Source: a virus. From it: a DNA stretch of 6,138 nt. Where the stretch lies: IMG/VR virus record IMGVR_UViG_3300045988_000907, positions 1 through 6,138 of that record. One strand, 5' to 3'. The notes beneath the pieces are model-generated. The model was given only the letters and a program-made list of their open reading frames with translations. It made no database searches and was not told the DNA's origin. Below, piece after piece: positions 1-6,138 of this stretch; position 1 is the first letter of the stretch, and each line of letters opens with the position of its first letter. The translations under genes and the position numbers were made by a program.

Positions 1-55
1 CCTCTCAATCCGCGCAACAGAATACCTACAACGCTGGAAAGAAGTAGTACAATTC
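1..55. repeat. Terminal direct repeat, copy 1, identical to 6084..6138. This is the overlap from a circular genome assembly.
   Basis: I compared the 55-nt string CCTCTCAATCCGCGCAACAGAATACCTACAACGCTGGAAAGAAGTAGTACAATTC base by base at both window ends and it is identical. The VP1 frame continues across the junction: 6084 is a third codon position and position 2 is a first codon position. Confidence 0.97.
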
Positions 56-763
56 GCTAGCAAGGACTATTCGGATCAGATGGCTGCCCAATTCGGAATT
101 AAAGCTCCTGAATACATGGGTAATCATTGCCATTATATCGGAGGTTGGTCTAGTGTAATCAATATTAATGAGGTTGTTAACACTAATCTTGATACTGATT
201 CTTCGCAGGCTTCTATTGCTGGTAAGGGTATCTCTAGCAATTCCGGACATACTCTTACTTATGATTGTGGCGCCGAGCATCAGGTAATTATGTGTGTTTA
301 CCACGCTGTTCCCTTGCTTGATTGGTCTCTTAAGGGACATAATCCACAGTTATTATGTACGTCTATATCTGACTTTCCTCAACCTGCTTTTGACCAGTTG
401 GGTATGCAGCCTGTCCCGGCTTTGGCTCTTAATAATAGCCCTTCATCTACCACTGGTAATATTGGATATAATCTGCGTTACTGGCAATGGAAATCCGCTG
501 TTGATACGGTTCATGGTGCGTTTCGTCCTAATGCTGCTTATCAGTCTTGGGTTGCTCCGCTTCAAGGTTCTCAGATTCAAGTTTTGGGCCAATCTTCATT
601 GTCCTATCAGTCATTCAAGATTCGTCCTCAACAGTTGAATTCTATATTCGAACCTCAAATTTCTACTAGCAATTATAGTGTGGCTTATGATCAGTTATTA
701 TGTAATGTTAATTTCCAAGTGTACGCTGTACAGAACTTGGATAGAAATGGTTTACCTTTTTAA
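2..763 (+). CDS. VP1: Major capsid protein VP1, C-terminal part, continuing from 5110..6083. The listed ORF 80..763 is its in-frame tail.
   Basis: It is in the same frame as 5110.. once the 6083-nt circle is closed. 974 + 763 = 1737 nt = 579 codons, giving 578 aa. Sequence ...RATEYLQRWKEVVQFASKDYSDQMAAQFG...FPQPAFDQLGMQPV...NLRYWQWKSAVDTVHGAF...LDRNGLPF, with TAA at 761..763. The length and motifs fit the large VP1 of gut Bacteroidales-type microviruses. Confidence 0.9.
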   Translation, partial: LSIRATEYLQRWKEVVQFASKDYSDQMAAQFGIKAPEYMGNHCHYIGGWSSVININEVVNTNLDTDSSQASIAGKGISSNSGHTLTYDCGAEHQVIMCVYHAVPLLDWSLKGHNPQLLCTSISDFPQPAFDQLGMQPVPALALNNSPSSTTGNIGYNLRYWQWKSAVDTVHGAFRPNAAYQSWVAPLQGSQIQVLGQSSLSYQSFKIRPQQLNSIFEPQISTSNYSVAYDQLLCNVNFQVYAVQNLDRNGLPF

Positions 764-774
764 TTGTTTGTGTT

Positions 775-1218
775 ATGAGAAATTTTGCTTATAAAAATCC
801 TAATTTTGAACAGGATTCTGTGACTCCCGAATTGGTTGAAGGGAATCCCTGTTACCAGTCTAGTGTATATGATTCGGTTATGTTGGAAGAAATGCCTGAT
901 GGCTCGTTTAAATATATGGATATGACGTCTATTCTTCTTAATCAGGAGAAGTATCGTCGTTTGCTTGGTGATATGAACGTGCAGAACATTCTTTCCCAGA
1001 TGCATCCTACTCAATCTACTGTTATGGATGGTATGACTGATGAGGAACGTTTTAATTGTGTTATCTCTCGGCATTGTCAGACTATGTCGGAACGACAGGC
1101 TGTTCTTCAGCAATTGGCTAATGAGCAATCAGAATTAACTAAGTACGCCGAAACTATGTTGGCAGAGCAACAGTCAGCGCCCGATCAATCGCCCGCCCCT
1201 GACACCACTGCTCAATGA
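775..1218 (+). CDS. Hypothetical 147-aa protein. A scaffolding (VP3-like) role is suggested only by its position and size.
   Basis: The ATG lies 12 nt after the VP1 stop, and its TGA overlaps the next gene's ATG (ATGA at 1215..1218). It is T-rich at third codon positions. The C-terminal half is Gln/Glu-rich and looks helical (QAVLQQLANEQSELTKYAETMLAEQQ), followed by a Pro/Ala/Gln tail. I recognise no diagnostic motif. Confidence 0.7.
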   Translation: MRNFAYKNPNFEQDSVTPELVEGNPCYQSSVYDSVMLEEMPDGSFKYMDMTSILLNQEKYRRLLGDMNVQNILSQMHPTQSTVMDGMTDEERFNCVISRHCQTMSERQAVLQQLANEQSELTKYAETMLAEQQSAPDQSPAPDTTAQ

Positions 1219-2327
1219 GATTCTATGAGATTGGAGAAAGCCCCTTAATGGGGCACTCCGAAAAATGTATTGCTCCACTTGTTCTTGGAGGTATTATTGC
1301 TGCCGGTGCTTCACTTGCTGGTAATGCTATCGGCGCGTCTTCTCAGTCTGCTACTAATGATGCTAATGTTGAGATTAACCGTCAAAATAACCAGTTTAAT
1401 GCTGATCAGGCTGCTATGCAGCGTCAATGGTCAACTGATATGTGGAATCGTAATAATCGGTATAATTCACCTAATGAGATGATTTCTCGTGGTCTTAATC
1501 CGTTTATATCGAATACTGGTGCTGGTGTTTCTAAGTCTCCCGCTTCCGGTGGTGCTGCTGCTTCTGCTGCTCCTCCTCCTAGTATCCAGGCGTTCCGTCC
1601 GGACTTTTCTGATGTCGGCTCTGCGTTGGCTTCTATGGCTCAAGCTCGTGCCTCCATGATTAATGCCGAACAGAATGCTGCTCTTACGCCGTATAAGATT
1701 GAACAGATTCGTGGTGCTACTGATTATCGTAATATTGGTGTAGGTGAGTCCGGTTACTGGACTGCTTCTGCTGGTAGGCGTTCTGCTCTATTAGATCAGT
1801 CTAAAGAGTACCAGGAACTTAAGAATATGGAATTCGCCGGTCGTCTTACGTCTGCTCAAGAATCTCAGATCTTACTCGACGCTCAAGCTCAACAGATATT
1901 GAATAAATATCTTGATGAACAGCAACAGGCTGATTTGTTCATTAAGGGACAGACTTTGGCTAACCTGTATGCTCAAGGTGCACTCTCTGAGGCTCAATAT
2001 AAGAATCAGATGGCACAGGCTGTTAAGGCTTCTGCTGAAACCAATGGTATTCGTCTTAGTAACAGGATTGCTGAACAGACGGCTGACTCTCTGATCTATG
2101 CTAATATTCAGGCTAATCGTGCCCGTGGTTTATCTTCTCTTTGGGATTCTAAGAATACCAATATCCTTAAGAATATTGAATATTCTAAGGACAAGGCTTT
2201 GCGCGACTATTATAAATGGTCTTCTAAGGAAAAACAGAAAGATGTTAAATCTTATGAGTTACGTAATGCTATTGATTACGGTACTCGTATATTCCAAGGA
2301 GTTGGTAATTCTATTGGCCGTAAATAA
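1215..2327 (+). CDS. VP2: VP2-type minor capsid / DNA pilot protein (370 aa).
   Basis: There is an N-terminal Gly/Ala-rich hydrophobic segment (IAPLVLGGIIAAGASLAGNAIGASS). It is followed by the block NRQNNQFNADQAAMQRQWSTDMWNRNNRYNSPNEMISRGLNPF, which resembles the conserved N-x-F-N...W...M-W-N...Y-N-S-P...GLNP signature of microvirus VP2/H pilot proteins. Then come a low-complexity linker (GGAAASAAPPPS) and a long Gln/Ala-rich region that looks like a coiled coil. An alternative start is the ATG at 1248. Confidence 0.85.
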   Translation: MRFYEIGESPLMGHSEKCIAPLVLGGIIAAGASLAGNAIGASSQSATNDANVEINRQNNQFNADQAAMQRQWSTDMWNRNNRYNSPNEMISRGLNPFISNTGAGVSKSPASGGAAASAAPPPSIQAFRPDFSDVGSALASMAQARASMINAEQNAALTPYKIEQIRGATDYRNIGVGESGYWTASAGRRSALLDQSKEYQELKNMEFAGRLTSAQESQILLDAQAQQILNKYLDEQQQADLFIKGQTLANLYAQGALSEAQYKNQMAQAVKASAETNGIRLSNRIAEQTADSLIYANIQANRARGLSSLWDSKNTNILKNIEYSKDKALRDYYKWSSKEKQKDVKSYELRNAIDYGTRIFQGVGNSIGRK

Positions 2328-2439
2328 ATATTACTATTCGTTGTCTTCTATTTTTACTTATCGCTTATTCTTGTTGTGAATATTTGATTTTGCGAAATAT
2401 TTTGACACTCGGTAGTAAAATAGTATTACATATACATTC

Positions 2440-2660
2440 TTCAGGACTAGAAGCCTATCACGGCGTTTGAGTGATATACACCTGCCGCCCGCATAGGGCC
2501 TGATCGAAAAACGGAGCGGAGCGACTTCCTTATAGGAGCGCCCCGCTCCGGTAATTTAGCACGTAGGTGCGCAAAGGCAAGACAGCTCCTGCCTTGCCGT
2601 GCCTATACCCCCCTGTATACATCCACTTGTTAATTATGCGGAGCCCCTAGTTGTGTCCGA
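2440..2660. other. GC-rich, hairpin-dense non-coding island. Candidate roles are ssDNA complementary-strand origin, att-like element or structured RNA. The family is unknown.
   Basis: By hand count, 2451..2660 is 116/210 = 55% GC, against 26% for 2341..2440 and 30% for 2701..2840. Stems read directly from the sequence: TATCAC 2456..2461 with GTGATA 2471..2476; GCCC 2487..2490 with GGGC 2496..2499; CGGAGCGG 2512..2519 with CCGCTCCG 2543..2550, with inner pairs; GCAC 2559..2562 with GTGC 2567..2570; GGCAAGACAG 2576..2585 with CTGCCTTGCC 2589..2598, with one A.C mismatch. There is no ORF showing the T-rich third-position bias of the genes. Confidence 0.5.
2512..2550. other. Long imperfect GC-rich hairpin of about 16 bp, the strongest local structure in the genome.
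   Basis: The outer 8 bp are CGGAGCGG/CCGCTCCG. Inside are GCG 2521..2523 with CGC 2539..2541, C2525 with G2538, and TCCT 2527..2530 with AGGA 2534..2537, closing on loop TAT. A5 (2507..2511) precedes it, so on the minus strand it reads as stem-loop plus U5. Confidence 0.7.
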
Positions 2661-2663
2661 AAG

Positions 2664-2700
2664 GAAAACCCGAGTTATCATCTCGGTTTCTCTGTTTCTT
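2664..2700 (+). terminator. Candidate intrinsic terminator closing the + strand transcription unit.
   Basis: CCGAG 2670..2674 pairs with CTCGG 2682..2686 (loop TTATCAT). The stem extends through A2666..A2668 pairing with T2687..T2689, with C2669 bulged. It is followed by the T-rich tract TTTCTCTGTTTCTTG. The stem is only moderately strong. Confidence 0.4.
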
Positions 2701-2757
2701 GTCTATAAACGCACAACTCACACCCTATGGTACAATCTAAAAAAAAATAGCTTTTTC

Positions 2758-2788
2758 TTTGGATTCATGGAAATAGTTCGTATATTTG
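2758..2788 (+). promoter_or_regulatory. Bacteroidetes-type promoter (-33 TTTG, -7 TAnnTTTG) upstream of the small-ORF/M15/VP4/VP1 gene string.
   Basis: TTTG sits at 2758..2761 and TATATTTG at 2781..2788, an exact TAnnTTTG match, with a 19-nt spacer. It lies about 50 nt upstream of the first ATG after the gap (2839). The motif definition comes from established knowledge of Bacteroides sigma-AB promoters. Confidence 0.5.
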
Positions 2789-2838
2789 CCCCGGTTAGAA
2801 GTTACAACTGTTATTAACATTTTAAAACTATTACAATT

Positions 2839-3033
2839 ATGCAAAAGTTCATTATTTCAGTTAAAGAAAAAACTACTGGTCGTGATGTTGTTTCGCCTTA
2901 TGTCGTTAATTCTCTCGATGGTCTTGGAAACTATTCTGAACGAGTTTCTTCGTTGGGTCTTATTGTTATTGTGGATTCAATTAAAGAAGAGAATAGCTTT
3001 GTTGAACTTAAAACTCAAGGTGATGAAAAGTAA
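2839..3033 (+). CDS. Hypothetical 64-aa protein.
   Basis: It is the first ATG after the promoter. Third codon positions are T-rich (ggt cgt gat gtt gtt tcg cct tat gtc gtt). Its last codons overlap the start of the next small ORF (ATGAAAAGTAA). I recognise no motif. Confidence 0.55.
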   Translation: MQKFIISVKEKTTGRDVVSPYVVNSLDGLGNYSERVSSLGLIVIVDSIKEENSFVELKTQGDEK

Positions 3034-3106
3034 TAATATTTGGAAACTTGTTATTGGCGCTGTTTCTGCTGCTCTTGGTTACATCCTTAATGCTATTGGA
3101 CTGTGA
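3023..3106 (+). CDS. 27-aa single-pass hydrophobic peptide (MKSNNIWKLVIGAVSAALGYILNAIGL). Candidate membrane, holin-like or anchor peptide.
   Basis: This is the C-terminal part of track ORF 2786..3106. I chose the internal ATG at 3023 because upstream of it that frame overlaps the better-supported 64-aa ORF. A polar N-terminus is followed by about 20 hydrophobic residues. Its TGA overlaps the next gene's GTG (GTGA at 3103..3106). Short ORFs are inherently uncertain. Confidence 0.45.
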   Translation: MKSNNIWKLVIGAVSAALGYILNAIGL

Positions 3107-3411
3107 ATAATACTCTTATGCATTTTCTTGAGCATCTGTTGTGTTTTAACTTGCACTTTACGATAACAAGTGCCAAACGTTCTATCGCTGAGAACAAGGC
3201 TGCCGGTGGCGTTCCTAATTCGCAACATCTGTTTGGAGAGGCTATTGATATGAAGCCTTATGGCTCTACTACTTATAGTCGTTTGCTTGAGCACATCCAT
3301 AGTTATTCGGATAATACCCATGTATTCGATCAGTTGATACTGTATCCTACATTTATTCATATTTCGTTTGGTGCTCGTAATCGTCGCCAAGTAATTGACA
3401 AACGTAAATAG
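3103..3411 (+). CDS. Minimal peptidase M15 (VanY / Peptidase_M15_3-like zinc peptidoglycan peptidase). Probable endolysin.
   Basis: ITSAKRSIAENKAAGGVPNSQHLFGEAIDM matches the family signature S-G/A-x-R-S-x-x-x-N-x-x-x-GG-x-x-x-S-x-H-x-x-G-x-A-x-D. The C-terminal FIHISF supplies the third zinc ligand. Candidate ligands are H42 (3226..3228), D49 (3247..3249) and H86 (3358..3360). The start is either GTG 3103 or ATG 3118. Confidence 0.8.
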   Translation: MNNTLMHFLEHLLCFNLHFTITSAKRSIAENKAAGGVPNSQHLFGEAIDMKPYGSTTYSRLLEHIHSYSDNTHVFDQLILYPTFIHISFGARNRRQVIDKRK

Positions 3412-3413
3412 TT

Positions 3414-5093
3414 ATGAAATTTTCTCCTGATTTGCTTAAGGCTGTTGATCATTGTCAGCATCGTTCGTTTATTACGAATAGATATAATGGTGCACGTATT
3501 GCTGTAGATTGCGGTCAATGCGATTATTGTATCCATAAGAAAGCTAAGAAAGCGTCTATGCGTGTGAAGACCGCTGGAAGTGCTTTCAAGTATTCTTATT
3601 TTGTGACGCTTACTTATGACAACGTTCATATTCCTCTTATGAATTGTAAGGTTCTCCACAGTGAATATGAGGATGTCGTAGGCATTTCAGGAGACCTTCA
3701 TTTTGGTAATGAATATCATCAGTATATCCCTGTTTCCGAGTATCATTGTAATGATAACTCCGCATTGTGTCATATACTCTTCGAACAGGTTCAAGGCACT
3801 GTGCCGTATGACCGTGAAATTAAGGAATATGCTCCTGTTAAGGATAATTGGTTTCTTAGTATGGATGCTATTCGTAGCTTTATCGCTAAAACGCAAGCCG
3901 TTGACAAAACGGATTATCCCGCTTCTGGACAATATGGTCGTGATAACCTTATTCCCTTTCTGAATTACGTCGATGTTCAGAATTATATTAAGCGCTTGCG
4001 TAAACATCTTTTTCAAACTTTAGGTTCTTATGAAACGTTACACTTTTACGCTGTGGGTGAGTACGGACCCGTACATTTCCGCCCGCATTATCATCTCCTA
4101 TTATTCACAAACTCGGACGAAGTCGCTGAGGTTCTACGATACTGTCACGATAAGAGTTGGAAACTCGGTCGTTCAGATTTCCAACGTTCCGCTGGCGGAG
4201 CTTCATCGTACGTTGCGAGTTACGTTAACAGCCTTAGTGCTGCTCCCCTTCTATATCGTTCATGCCGCGCGTTTAGACCCAGGTCGCGAGCGTCTGTCGG
4301 ATTCTTTGAGAAAGGCTGTGACTACGTGGAAAGTGAAGACCCTTATGCGCAAATTGAGCAAAAAATCGATTCTGTCGTTAATGGAAGAATCTATAACTTC
4401 AACGGCATCAGTGTTCGGTCAACTCCACCCATGTCGTATATCCGTACCTTACTGCCCCGATTCTCGTCTGCTTGCAATGACGATAGTACTGCGATTGCTC
4501 GAATTCTTCTCGCTGTTCACCGAACGCCAAAAAGAATTGCGAAATTCGGATTCGTTGATTACAGACAGGATTCAATATTAGATCTTGTTCGTACCTATTA
4601 TAAATATCTTAAGGTTAATTCTATTCTTACAGATGATGATAAGATTATATTACACACTTCTCGGTGCCTTACTAGGTTCTGCAACAGTTCTAGTGACGTC
4701 GATATTGAATCTTATATTAATAAGTTATATCGGTTGTTCCTATATGTCTCTAAGTTCTTCCGTAACTGGCATCTGCCTGACTTCGGTTCTGATATTAGTG
4801 CTTACTCCGGCCGTATTGATTATATCATTAAAACGGGTATAGAGTATGAGAAGAAAAAGGATTATGAAAGTCTACGAGATGTATTCAACTTACGCTCCGC
4901 TAATCCGGAGATATCGGATTGTATGTTTGCGTTGCCACAGAATGGGCAAGAACTTGATGTCTTTACAAATGTTTCACGTGAAACGGTTCTACTCCTTGAG
5001 CAACTTCGGTATCGTAGTTCGACTCTTTGTCGTGACATGATTAAACATAAGAAGCTTAATGATGCTAATAATATATTCAACCGTATGGTTTAA
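3414..5093 (+). CDS. VP4: Replication initiation protein VP4 (HUH rolling-circle endonuclease, phiX174 gpA-like), 559 aa.
   Basis: It has an N-terminal CGQCDYC zinc-finger-like motif (3510..3530). HUH motif I is FVTLTYD (3600..3620), motif II is RPHYHLLLF (H-Y-H at 4086..4094), and the two-tyrosine motif III is SSYVASYVNS (Y266 at 4209..4211, Y270 at 4221..4223). The ATG lies 2 nt after the M15 stop. Confidence 0.92.
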   Translation: MKFSPDLLKAVDHCQHRSFITNRYNGARIAVDCGQCDYCIHKKAKKASMRVKTAGSAFKYSYFVTLTYDNVHIPLMNCKVLHSEYEDVVGISGDLHFGNEYHQYIPVSEYHCNDNSALCHILFEQVQGTVPYDREIKEYAPVKDNWFLSMDAIRSFIAKTQAVDKTDYPASGQYGRDNLIPFLNYVDVQNYIKRLRKHLFQTLGSYETLHFYAVGEYGPVHFRPHYHLLLFTNSDEVAEVLRYCHDKSWKLGRSDFQRSAGGASSYVASYVNSLSAAPLLYRSCRAFRPRSRASVGFFEKGCDYVESEDPYAQIEQKIDSVVNGRIYNFNGISVRSTPPMSYIRTLLPRFSSACNDDSTAIARILLAVHRTPKRIAKFGFVDYRQDSILDLVRTYYKYLKVNSILTDDDKIILHTSRCLTRFCNSSSDVDIESYINKLYRLFLYVSKFFRNWHLPDFGSDISAYSGRIDYIIKTGIEYEKKKDYESLRDVFNLRSANPEISDCMFALPQNGQELDVFTNVSRETVLLLEQLRYRSSTLCRDMIKHKKLNDANNIFNRMV

Positions 5094-5109
5094 TTTTAAT
5101 TAATTAATT

Positions 5110-6138
5110 ATGAGTGATTTTAATATCTTAGACCGGGCTAGAATTTCTACGCATCGGTCTTCTTTCGACTTGAGTTCGAAAAAACTGTTTACAGCCAAAG
5201 TTGGAGAGATTCTCCCATGTTATTGGCAGATTGCTATTCCTGGCAATAAGTACCGTATTTCCTCTGATTGGTTTACTCGTACTGTTCCGGTTAATACTGC
5301 TGCTTATACTCGTATTAAGGAATACTACGACTTCTATGCTGTGCCGTTACGTCTTATATCTCGTGCTCTTCCACAGGCGTTTACCCAGGTGACGGATTAC
5401 ATGACTTCTGCTTCGTCTAATGTTTCTAATTCAGAACGGTTGACTGATGTTCCGTATGCTCCTCTTGGTAATATCTCCGGCGAGATTCGTAATAGAACGG
5501 CCTCTAATACCTTAGATGATGCTGGTTTTGGCTTTGCTTATGGTTCTTGTAAGTTGCTTGATCTGCTTTGTTATGGCTCGTTTATTGGTACTGGTAATGA
5601 CAAGAAAAAAGAAATTACTCTGCAGTATCTTGGTCTTGATATCGCTTCGTTGGCTGATTCTCAGAATCCTCTTATATATGGAACTAGTGTCAATGTAAAT
5701 CTTCTTCCTATCCTTGCCTATCAGAAGATCTATTTTGATTTCTTTTCTAATTCCCAGTGGGAAAAACATTTGGCTTATTCTTATAATGTTGATTATTGGG
5801 ATGGTAAGAGTTCTGTTGAGATCTCTTCTGATATGATTAAGCTTCGCTATGCGGACTATCCTAAAGATTACTTTCTTGGTGTCTTGCCTAATTCTCAATA
5901 TGGTTCAGTAGCTATTTTGCCGAGTGTGTTTTCTACGTCCTATCCGTCGAATTCTGTCTTGGTTGTTTCTAATGACCGTTCTTCTGTTAGTGGTGTAGAA
6001 AATGTTGCTAGTTCTTCTACGGTTAGCGTTTCCGATCAATCGTCTTCTCTTCGTCCTTCATTTATTAATTCTGACCTCTCCGCCCTCTCAATCCGCGCAA
6101 CAGAATACCTACAACGCTGGAAAGAAGTAGTACAATTC
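5110..6138 (+). CDS. VP1: Major capsid protein VP1 (Microviridae F-like jelly-roll capsid), N-terminal part. The ORF runs off the window end and continues at position 2.
   Basis: I translated from the ATG at 5110 and found no stop through 6138: MSDFNILDRARISTHRSSFDLSSKKLFTAKVGEILPCYW...YDFYAVPLRLISR...LPILAYQKIYFDFFSNSQWEKH... These are typical microvirus VP1 N-terminal motifs (H/R-S-x-FDLS, G-x-L-P, Y/F-x-VP-x-R-L). The ORF is missing from the supplied track only because it has no stop inside the window. Third codon positions are T-rich, like the other genes. Confidence 0.9.
   Translation, partial: MSDFNILDRARISTHRSSFDLSSKKLFTAKVGEILPCYWQIAIPGNKYRISSDWFTRTVPVNTAAYTRIKEYYDFYAVPLRLISRALPQAFTQVTDYMTSASSNVSNSERLTDVPYAPLGNISGEIRNRTASNTLDDAGFGFAYGSCKLLDLLCYGSFIGTGNDKKKEITLQYLGLDIASLADSQNPLIYGTSVNVNLLPILAYQKIYFDFFSNSQWEKHLAYSYNVDYWDGKSSVEISSDMIKLRYADYPKDYFLGVLPNSQYGSVAILPSVFSTSYPSNSVLVVSNDRSSVSGVENVASSSTVSVSDQSSSLRPSFINSDLSALSIRATEYLQRWKEVVQF
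6084..6138. repeat. Terminal direct repeat, copy 2, identical to 1..55. The unit genome length is 6083 nt.
   Basis: Exact 55/55 identity with 1..55. It lies inside the capsid ORF, so it is redundancy from circularisation and not a biological repeat. Confidence 0.97.

Follow-up and report, generated by a model that had tools for sequence, protein, structure and literature searches.

Which role is played by the only sizeable non-coding region of a microvirus genome? This question is raised by the IMG/VR virus record IMGVR_UViG_3300045988_000907, of which positions 1 to 6,138 were analyzed (referred to as the window). A gap of 511 nt between the gene of the pilot protein VP2 and an open reading frame (ORF) of 64 amino acids (2328-2838) harbors a GC-rich, hairpin-dense island in this genome. 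A sequence-only reading had proposed that the island is a complementary-strand origin, a host-derived phage attachment site (attP) or a structured RNA or 3' untranslated region (UTR) element. Of these three proposals the complementary-strand origin is the best supported one, the attP found no support, and the RNA proposal appears to hold mainly for a single hairpin called H3. The data show how the island is conserved and folded, its strand and wobble preferences, its motifs and its place relative to terminator and promoter; from them we infer a priming function and the involvement of a host enzyme. We therefore propose, with moderate confidence, that the island is a cis-acting replication region with a complementary-strand origin similar to that of phage G4, which would act as folded single-stranded DNA (ssDNA) and possibly adjoins a viral-strand origin.

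A conserved GC-rich island downstream of VP2

The GC-rich core noticed in the sequence-only reading was confirmed by computation, with 55.2% GC at 2451-2660 compared to 25.5% and 26.8% in the flanks (2328-2437 and 2727-2838) and 40.5% in the genome; the accompanying estimate of about 35% for VP2 was too low, as the whole gene has 42.9%. The implication that this composition is foreign or host-derived is not supported, because the complementary-strand origin of G4 (oric) is a GC-rich island as well (58% vs 46% in G4, 55% vs 40% here). The gap was also correctly described as lacking a credible ORF, since each frame of 2438-2726 holds three to six stop codons. A candidate gene at 2599-2817 was rejected, as it has no Pfam match and the indels of relatives are not multiples of three. 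Public annotations contain small "hypothetical proteins" of 51, 56, 50 and 98 amino acids inside or across the homologous island (L139 3938-4284 in JGI contig Ga0564409_00016, L007 460-612 and L002 895-1191). These calls are probably spurious and caused by GC-rich structured DNA.

More than 170 unique microvirus assemblies carry the island. BLAST detected it in 34 phage records with 73-87% identity, which equals or exceeds the genome-wide identity of these records, and among the 50,697 phage records searched the matches were confined to its own clade. Each of three independent exact-pattern scans of IMG/VR recovered more than 100 contigs, all of microvirus size and of the same clade. In the alignments A1 and A2 the conserved block covers 2438-2726 with many invariant columns, and the upstream VP2 C-terminus is not alignable. 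Thus, the island outlined before at 2440-2700 is real and the conserved element is slightly wider. As the independent assemblies come from dog, human, lemur and other samples, an assembly chimera was rejected as explanation. One relative (L131, IMGVR_UViG_3300007657_000131) has an island that stops after the first strand of hairpin H5 and runs straight into Rep-like coding sequence; this is probably a chimeric or rearranged assembly.

The island folds better than dinucleotide shuffles, with z = -3.7 for RNA of the + strand, -3.9 for the - strand and -4.0 with DNA parameters. In agreement with the earlier impression that no RNA family is recognizable, only three weak matches came out of an Rfam cmscan with E<=10, none of them within the island core, and ARAGORN found no tRNA or tmRNA in the island.

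Covarying helices on the + strand

A model of 57 base pairs was scored on 84 non-redundant sequences. In this set, 97.6% of the cells are paired, and double changes occur in 15 pairs (179 cells). None of 500 shuffles came up to these values, and slid registers did not exceed 8 pairs and 40 cells. Covariation backs about ten helices; two crossing pairs and one long-range stem are among them. The parts of the element and the promoter next to it are as follows:

2438-2726, + strand: whole conserved non-coding element, with a GC-rich 5' module (2438-2611), an insertion-prone spacer (2612-2627) and a universal 3' module (2628-2726)
2450-2475, + strand: PK1, crossing helix pair, S1 at 2450-55/2462-67 and H1 at 2457-61/2471-75
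2473-2482, + strand: invariant single-stranded motif GATATACACC, with a second copy CCTATACCC at 2602-2610
2483-2499, + strand: PK2, compact crossing pair, S1 at 2483-85/2491-93 and S2 at 2487-90/2496-99
2512-2558, + strand: H3, long hairpin (2512-19/2543-50, 2521-23/2539-41, 2525-28/2535-38) with a T-rich tail (2552-2558)
2559-2570, + strand: H4, 4-bp hairpin GCAC/GTGC, with the tip C-GNA-G in many relatives
2576-2598, + strand: H5, hairpin GGCAAG/CTTGCC, known in three compensated versions
2612-2627, + strand: variable spacer and insertion hot-spot; relatives have extra hairpins of about 30 nt, inserts, tandem repeats or deletions at exactly this point
2628-2644, + strand: AT-rich TGTTAATTAT followed by the mini-hairpin GCGGAGC (2638-2644)
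2649-2655, + strand: 5' strand AGTTGTG of the long-range helix, partner at 2712-2718
2656-2665, + strand: H6, mini-hairpin T-CC-GAAA-GG-A
2666-2689, + strand: H7, hairpin of about 8 bp with the conserved loop TTAYCNY (2675-2681)
2690-2723, + strand: pyrimidine tract, near-invariant CTTGTCTATAAACG (2698-2711), 3' strand CACAACT of the long-range helix (2712-2718), CACAC
2739-2788, + strand: A-run (2739-2747) and strict Bacteroidota-type promoter (-33 TTTG at 2758-2761, 19-nt spacer, -7 TATATTTG at 2781-2788), outside the folded element

Within the 5' module, H1 is paired to 100%, and its pair 2460:2472 is found as G:C (69), A:U (11) and C:G (4). The S1 helix of PK1 is weaker, with 82% pairing overall (2451:2466, A:T 62, G:C 10). 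PK2, which may be either a pseudoknot or a set of two alternative hairpins, is paired to 100% without any G:T, and both of its helices covary independently (2483:2493, C:G 106, T:A 7, G:C 4; 2488:2498 in S2, C:G 114, G:C 2, A:T 1; 2490:2496 in S2, C:G 114, T:A 3). H3 contains a mini-hairpin GCGGAGC (2516-2522) and an alternative perfect hairpin (2535-40/2544-49) that covaries on its own (G:C 72, A:T 45); in one sub-clade the 3' strand of H3 is replaced by a second GCGNAGC. H4 is again paired to 100% (2561:2568, A:T 90, G:C 27), and H5 occurs as GGCAAG/CTTGCC, GGCAGGT/ACCTGCC or GGCAGAT/ATCTGCC with an inner pair of G:C (54), G:T (44), A:T (16) or A:C (3). The single-stranded motif of the GATATACACC type is present at least twice in 117/117 islands of the clade of the window (clade 1) and also occurs in a second clade.

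The 3' module is shared by both clades, and 170 unique copies were compared. For these cross-clade counts the pairs were parsed by motif anchors; the MAFFT alignment A3 is one column out of register at the long-range helix. All seven pairs of this helix are canonical in at least 99.4% of the modules, three of them with three to four Watson-Crick types, and only 16-36% Watson-Crick pairs remain when the registers of the 3' module are slid. Five Watson-Crick versions exist in clade 1 (AGTTGTG/CACAACT, AGTTGCG/CGCAACT, AGTTCAA/TTGAACT, AGTTCAG/CTGAACT and AGTTCGA/TCGAACT) and at least seven in both clades together. In H7 five of the eight pairs covary, with G:T in 2/1352 cells, and the loop reads TTATC(C/A/T)T in clade 1 and TTACCTC in clade 2. 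The pair 2657:2664 of H6 is G:C in 69, C:G in 45 and A:T in 3 cases, closing loops of the sequence GAA, GGA, GTA, GAAA or GTAA. In the mini-hairpin at 2638-2644 only the N of GC-GNA-GC varies, and across the clades its 2-bp stem covaries as well (G:C 158, A:T 12; C:G 168, T:A 2).

These data fit with several details read by eye before. The stem-loops, including the one of about 16 bp that corresponds to H3 (2512-2550), belong to the conserved and covarying stems found in the islands of the relatives, and the positions given for GGAGC (2513, 2518, 2535, 2640) and GCTCC (2545, 2585) are exact. The suggested pairing of CCGCATA (2489-95) with TATGCGG (2635-41) can be drawn in the window, but relatives do not maintain it; the true long-range helix is 2649-55/2712-18.

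A modular element with a counterpart in a second clade

The 5' module is missing in L037 and L069, and L018 retains only one of its hairpins, whereas the 3' module is kept in all three. Between both modules, the spacer has received a perfect hairpin of about 30 nt (CCTAGATC..GATCTAGG) in relatives (hot-spot examples are L003 and L078, among others), an insert of about 150 nt in L010 and L069, or three tandem 22-nt repeats containing AAGTCCAGGACTT in L061 (2373-2750). This hot-spot might mark a point of replication initiation or termination.

Clade 2 comprises the Dulem viruses 236 and 257 and 64 IMG/VR relatives, whose Rep proteins are only about 26-28% identical to that of the window. Its modules were collected by a protein-guided search, as the exact-pattern scan yielded one contig only. 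The gap after VP2 has the same 3' architecture in these viruses, built from different stem sequences with compensations of their own. The first mini-hairpin is GGC-GAA-GCC, GAC-GAA-GTC or GGT-GAA-ACC, followed by a long-range stem of GAGTTTGC/GCAAACTC or GAGTTTAC/GTAAACTC, which encloses CCC-GNA-GGG or CCT-GGA-AGG as the equivalent of H6 and an 8-bp hairpin (AAAGCGAT/ATCGCTTT or AAAGCTAT/ATAGCTTT) with the loop TTACCTC. After this hairpin there is a pyrimidine tract and then CTTGTCTTATATACG...ACTCACA. The 2690-2723 block, which is invariant in clade 1, is still recognizable in clade 2 as CTTGTCTTATATACGCAAACTCACAG.

Wobble pairs and hairpin tips

The pairing is essentially pure Watson-Crick even where helices covary, and this applies to H1, both PK2 stems, H4, H6, H7, the short form of H3 and the long-range helix, in which G:T accounts for 3/1190 cells. 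The near-absence of G:T fits DNA, since a wobble counts as a mismatch there. Wobble is tolerated only in the long form of H3 (G:T 278, A:C 13), in the inner pair of H5 (46 vs 3) and in one terminal pair of the 2450-55/2462-67 helix, and the excess of G:T over A:C assigns these asymmetric helices to the + strand. The hairpin tips show a similar bias: 208/222 triloops are GNA closed by C:G, and the G..A tetraloops are GNRA in only 18/45 cases and GTTA, GTCA or GCCA in the other 27/45. Wobble, hairpin tips and position of the element point to ssDNA rather than RNA.

The mini-hairpin motif GCGNAGC/GCGNNAGC is extraordinarily stable as DNA and poorly bound by the ssDNA-binding protein SSB (PMC13037366). 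Reported sites of the motif are the complementary-strand origin of G4, where it marks the primase start (GCGAAAGC), St-1/alpha3 (GCGTTAGC), ssiA of RSF1010 (CCGAAGG) and the ssDNA promoter of N4 (GCGGAGC) (PMC13037366). The island contains GCGGAGC at 2516 and 2638 and CCGAAAGG at 2657, so that the motif is about 20-fold denser than elsewhere in the genome (3/289 nt vs 3/5789 nt, shuffle P = 0.011). Three to five copies are located on the + strand of the island in 116/117 relatives, compared to zero to two on the - strand in all of them. As a positive control, the same scan was applied to G4 and detected GCGAAAGC within the annotated primer (3970-3997), in the GC-rich intergenic island of 136 nt (58% vs 46% in the genome). 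As the background amounts to about one motif per kb in G4 coding DNA and 0.5 per kb here, with an enrichment P of only about 0.01, we regard the mini-hairpins as supportive and not as diagnostic.

The 3' flank of the first mini-hairpin (2644-2652: GC-CCCTAGTTG, in clade 2 CC-TACATGAG) resembles the G4 flank CCCTACTG (L142 3989-3998), which holds the primase start trinucleotide. This resemblance could be a coincidence.

Transcription signals in the gap and a possible function as RNA

The promoter at 2758-2788 is the single strict match to TTTG-N19-TAnnTTTG on both strands of the genome. TTTG and TAnnTTTG are kept in the alignment of the relatives, and Dulem virus 236 has the same layout. A sole strict promoter at this position suggests one genome-length transcription unit, with its start beyond the 3' end of the island and its end within the island. 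The long form of H3 is the best terminator candidate, with a mean RNA free energy (dG) of -25.2 kcal/mol and a following TATTTTAGC in 106/117 relatives (TAATTTAGC in the window). Judged by sequence, H3 together with its T-run looks like a candidate intrinsic terminator of the VP2-containing main transcript, and the hairpin appears to be an RNA-level structure because it is rich in wobble pairs and its 3' side adjoins the T-run. A simple terminator scan missed H3, due to its bulges, and flagged H7. H7 was downgraded as a terminator, as it has a dG of only -7.7, no T-run and an invariant loop and is spanned by the long-range helix. In clade 2 a classical terminator (dG -15.5, TTTTGTTGTT) directly follows the VP2 stop codon, ahead of all mini-hairpin structures; in clade 1 H3 precedes H4, H5 and the entire 3' module, and the sole strict promoter comes after the element. 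With a terminator upstream and a promoter downstream, most of the Watson-Crick-only structure is probably located in an untranscribed spacer, and the wobble-tolerant hairpins look like RNA-level terminators.

This arrangement bears on a rival explanation: the one genome-length transcript, which would start at the 2758-2788 promoter, would have the island as its folded 3' end, either as a 3' UTR or as an RNA processed from that end. Such an RNA might stabilize the mRNA, govern termination or read-through by the GGAGC and GCTCC elements, whose pairings are mutually exclusive, or have a trans-acting effect on the host. The island has mRNA sense and starts within a few nucleotides of the VP2 stop in many relatives, it is GC-rich within an AT-rich genome as is typical of structured RNAs, and its RNA folding z of -3.7 and the pseudoknot-like geometry of two crossing pairs, each covarying independently, would be expected for an RNA. 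The acceptance of G:U and not of A:C in H3 and H5 is in line with this idea too, and the pair 2536:2548 changes by transitions only, so that both alternative H3 folds stay pairable in a switch-like manner. On the other hand, the island matches no Rfam family, and most of the covarying helices have nearly no G:U intermediates, which is unusual in RNA. GNA triloops on stems of 2-3 bp would be marginal in RNA, and the tetraloops are of the GNNA and not of the GNRA type. Furthermore, the long-range helix requires sequence 25 nt past H7 and about 160 nt past the better terminator H3, the strong terminator of clade 2 comes before the homologous structures, and there is neither room for a dedicated promoter nor a conserved one. 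Altogether, we consider an RNA function of the whole island unlikely, but worth keeping in mind. A narrower version has a somewhat smaller chance: the 5' module (2438-2611) alone would represent a structured RNA of a new class, located where the genome-length transcript ends, and its pseudoknots and exclusive GGAGC/GCTCC pairings would switch between termination and read-through at H3, or it would act in trans on the Bacteroidota host. The 5' module sequence might also have two uses, one as RNA and one as a priming signal on ssDNA.

A putative origin of complementary-strand synthesis

Every microvirus requires a start signal for the complementary strand (PMC9865509). If the island is a replication region with a G4-like complementary-strand origin, it could work in the following way. 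After the circular ssDNA genome has entered a Bacteroidota host, SSB would coat most of it, and the GC-rich cluster of short stable hairpins, several of them with C-GNA-G or C-GNNA-G tips, would remain folded and free of SSB. The folded cluster would thereby mark the start of complementary-strand synthesis for the priming machinery of the host, which may be a PriA-type primosome or, in the manner of G4, St-1 and alpha3, primase alone. The universal 3' module, with its mini-hairpin, the long-range stem around the second mini-hairpin, the 8-bp hairpin with invariant loop and the invariant block, would be the core of the signal, and the nick or termination site of Rep may lie within it or next to it. 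The optional GC-rich 5' module would be an accessory or second initiation signal, in which H3 (2512-2550 plus T-run) may double as RNA-level terminator of the main transcript.

Several points weigh against this proposal. To our knowledge, nothing has been reported on ssDNA priming in Bacteroidota. As the + strand is also mRNA sense, an RNA would fold similarly, and transcripts would include both PK1 and PK2, which precede the proposed terminator. In addition, tight crossing helices with linkers of 1 nt and 2-3 nt are more familiar as RNA pseudoknots, and the terminator assignments for H3 and for clade 2 are predictions from sequence. The 5' module alone is not the sole essential origin, because L037 and L069 dispense with it. 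Finally, the single gap of phiHBP1, the only cultured Bacteroidota microvirus and one with a different gene order, has 208 nt (L143 6195-6319 and 1-83), is AT-rich with 27% GC and contains no mini-hairpin motifs; provided that the origin signals of phiHBP1 are intergenic, they belong to a different type.

A possible viral-strand origin in the 3' module

The invariant loop of H7 suggests a further possibility, that the 3' module is the viral-strand (+) origin, at which the Rep protein VP4 would cut a strand of the replicative form and rejoin the displaced strand, with the rest of the island being accessory. This arrangement would be comparable to hairpin [D] in the intergenic region of filamentous phages or to the double-strand origin of rolling-circle plasmids, and it can coexist with a complementary-strand origin in the same region. 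The stems of H7 covary while the loop TTAYCNY does not change, and a covarying stem with an invariant loop is the pattern of many nick hairpins of HUH nucleases. The stems are strand-symmetric with pure Watson-Crick pairing, and the Pfam family of Rep includes the gene II protein of filamentous phages. The indel hot-spot at 2612-2627 is located just upstream, where errors of rolling-circle initiation or termination would be expected to leave such traces. A weak resemblance exists between CCACTTGTTA (2623-2632) and CAACTTGATA, the cleavage decamer of phiX174 gene A, with 8/10 identical positions and about 0.2 such matches expected in the gap; the ACTTG part of CCACTTGTTA is deleted in some relatives. 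No nick site is identifiable from the sequence, Reps of the phiX174 type require no hairpin, and a 7-bp stem around 56 nt would be hard to extrude from duplex DNA. The motifs also persist between clades with Reps of only about 27% identity, which a conserved host reader explains at least as well, although nick motifs of HUH enzymes can be very conserved too. Therefore, we consider it rather improbable that the 3' module is primarily a viral-strand origin.

No support for an integration site

Another rival explanation is that the island holds a dif-like site for integration by XerC/XerD, as proposed for Bacteroidota microvirus (BMV) proviruses and shown for enterogokushoviruses. The att of BMV proviruses is dif-like and was placed by Krupovic and Forterre in the same interval as the gap, downstream of VP2 and upstream of the Rep gene (PMC3091885), and the attP of enterogokushoviruses is a dif motif (Kirchberger and Ochman 2020, PMC7062461). 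The 8 bases with which the XerC arm of Escherichia coli dif begins occur in the gap as GGTGCGCA (2566-2573), and the minus strand of 2617-2644 agrees with the bacterial dif consensus at 19/28 positions. This best score of the gap is lower than the coding background, which reaches 21/28, with a consensus that represents bacteria in general and not dif of Bacteroidales or att of BMV. Moreover, a 28-bp site leaves about 290 nt of covarying structure unexplained. A host match or attB, as would follow from the host-derived attP of the sequence-only reading, was not found: a scan of 185,579 species genomes gave only two 19-mer matches, in a cyanobacterium and in a metagenome-assembled genome of Rhodoferax, with dissimilar flanks, and about nine chance matches are expected as estimated from the database size. 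Prophage junctions were absent as well among the contigs checked, which were the fetched loci larger than 6.5 kb and the two longest Rep-carrying contigs among the best 120 of more than 2,800 Rep homologues; the oversized ones are tandem concatemers without host genes, as seen from tandem gene sets or repeats offset by about 6 kb. Almost all of these best 120 homologues are encoded on contigs of about 6 kb. Thus, the island shares with these systems the non-coding region of an integrase-less microvirus and, with BMV, the interval, but their 28-bp XerC/XerD sites flank real prophages and the island has neither a convincing dif-like site nor a prophage. An attP in the island is highly unlikely.

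The oversized relatives L139, L140, L141 and 16 IMG/VR loci larger than 6.45 kb are 1.1-3x tandem concatemers, some of which join two slightly different genomes; L140 and L141 have capsid genes for 579 and 575 amino acids. These concatemers are an artefact of assembly or rolling-circle amplification and inflate the apparent genome size. A hypothetical protein deposited at NCBI under Corynebacterium striatum is a Rep with 88% identity to that of the window, and its 6,035-nt contig almost certainly comes from a phage and was placed in a bacterial assembly by mistake.

Comparison with known initiation signals

Like oric of G4, St-1, alpha3 and phiK, the putative complementary-strand origin is located in an intergenic region of a virus of the same family and consists of a cluster of short stable hairpins on the viral strand. 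The tips are of the same type, with GCGAAAGC in G4 and GCGTTAGC in St-1/alpha3 compared to two copies of GCGGAGC and CCGAAAGG in the island and GCGAAGC, CCGAAGG and CC-GTTA-GG in relatives. The motif (G/T)ATAC, noticed post hoc, is 8-13-fold enriched in the island (2475, 2604, 2616), in the gap of Dulem virus 236 (L145 3455-3737) and in the G4 origin region defined by experiment (L142 3913, 3950, 3965), and TATAC(A/C)CC is placed after a hairpin twice in both clades. In contrast to G4, the island measures about 290 instead of 136 nt, has an optional 5' half and comes from phages of Bacteroidota, and its crossing helices and long-range stem have not been described for G4. Sequence homology to the origins of G4, St-1 and alpha3 was not detectable beyond short motifs, with only CCCTA(G/C)T shared in a visual comparison of the flanks of the first mini-hairpin.

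The primosome assembly site of phiX174 (n'/PriA, between the genes F and G) is also a folded intergenic part of the viral ssDNA that is read by the replication-restart machinery of the host to prime the complementary strand, and such a site is regarded in the literature as a general need of microviruses (PMC9865509). It is a single hairpin of about 55 nt without a sequence consensus, and nothing in the island can be matched to it by sequence.

The intergenic region of the Ff phages (M13, f1, fd) has about 500 nt and contains a terminator hairpin, the minus-origin hairpins, a plus-origin hairpin with the nick in its loop and the promoter of the replication genes. The island has the same order of a putative terminator, structured hairpins, an invariant-loop hairpin and a promoter, and Rep belongs to the Pfam family that includes the gene II protein. 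There is no sequence similarity, and one would not expect a microvirus to have a packaging signal like that of Ff. In Ff the minus origin imitates a sigma-70 promoter for RNA polymerase; a corresponding Bacteroidota mimic (TTTG...TAnnTTTG) was not seen by eye in a long hairpin arm within the island.

Plasmid single-strand origins (ssoA/T/U/W) and ssi signals are folded ssDNA elements of about 150-300 nt that act in a strand- and orientation-specific manner, are non-essential and cassette-like and are located just upstream of the double-strand origin. The order within the island would parallel this layout, and the mini-hairpin CCGAAGG of RSF1010 ssiA is identical to H6 in 32 relatives. The ssoA elements RS-B and CS-6 (TAGCGT in a terminal loop) are absent as such, with only TAGCAC/TAGCGC at 2556-2561, partly within the H4 stem and outside any loop. 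Unlike these plasmid-borne signals, the island is part of a phage.

A precedent in concept are the uncultured microviruses "reekeekee" and "roodoodoo", in which conserved intergenic DNA hairpins with compensatory substitutions, detected by computation, were proposed as candidate initiation sites of the negative strand (Olo Ndela et al. 2022, PMC9865509). They have one or two simple hairpins of 13-64 nt. The present element, from a Bacteroidota-associated lineage, has several domains within 290 nt and combines mini-hairpin tips with crossing helices and a long-range stem.

Genome context

Bases 1-60 of the window are repeated exactly at 6079-6138. This terminal direct repeat, an assembly overlap, indicates that the microvirus genome in the window is circular and complete, with a length of 6,078 nt. 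Every gene is encoded on the + strand:

5110 wrapping to 763, + strand: VP1, which spans the junction
775-1218, + strand: protein of 147 amino acids
1215-2327, + strand: VP2, pilot protein
2328-2838: gap of 511 nt, the sole sizeable non-coding region, between VP2 and the 64-amino-acid ORF
2839-3033, + strand: ORF of 64 amino acids
3103-3411, + strand: M15 peptidase, 102 amino acids, Peptidase_M15_3 domain (E = 2.9e-9)
3414-5093, + strand: Rep protein VP4, Pfam REP_ORF2-G2P

The Peptidase_M15_3 protein has a counterpart in both clades and is presumably the lysis enzyme of the phage. The phage phiHBP1 mentioned above is a distant cultured relative and infects Bacteroides fragilis (PMC13064476).

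Significance

Intergenic hairpins have already been proposed as negative-strand origins of microviruses, and we found no description of the present element, which is larger, modular and structurally richer than the known microvirus origins and belongs to a very abundant gut lineage. Related microviruses are among the most abundant phages of the mammalian gut, with more than 2,800 Rep homologues in one search, and we know of no microvirus outside the phiX174/G4 group for which the start of genome copying has been described. The element is a candidate origin mapped to the level of base pairs, whose helices, invariant loops and mini-hairpins can be mutated, and it accounts for the spurious small gene calls in public annotations of this region. 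The comparison also offers a route to distinguish structures that act as DNA from those that act as RNA, by the tolerance of wobble pairs and a preference for GNA/GNNA over GNRA loops. The element could guide the construction of replicons, phagemids and reporter systems for Bacteroides and Prevotella and, if the proposed function is correct, would show that the DNA mini-hairpins known from ssDNA initiation sites of enterobacterial phages mark such sites in a distant lineage as well.

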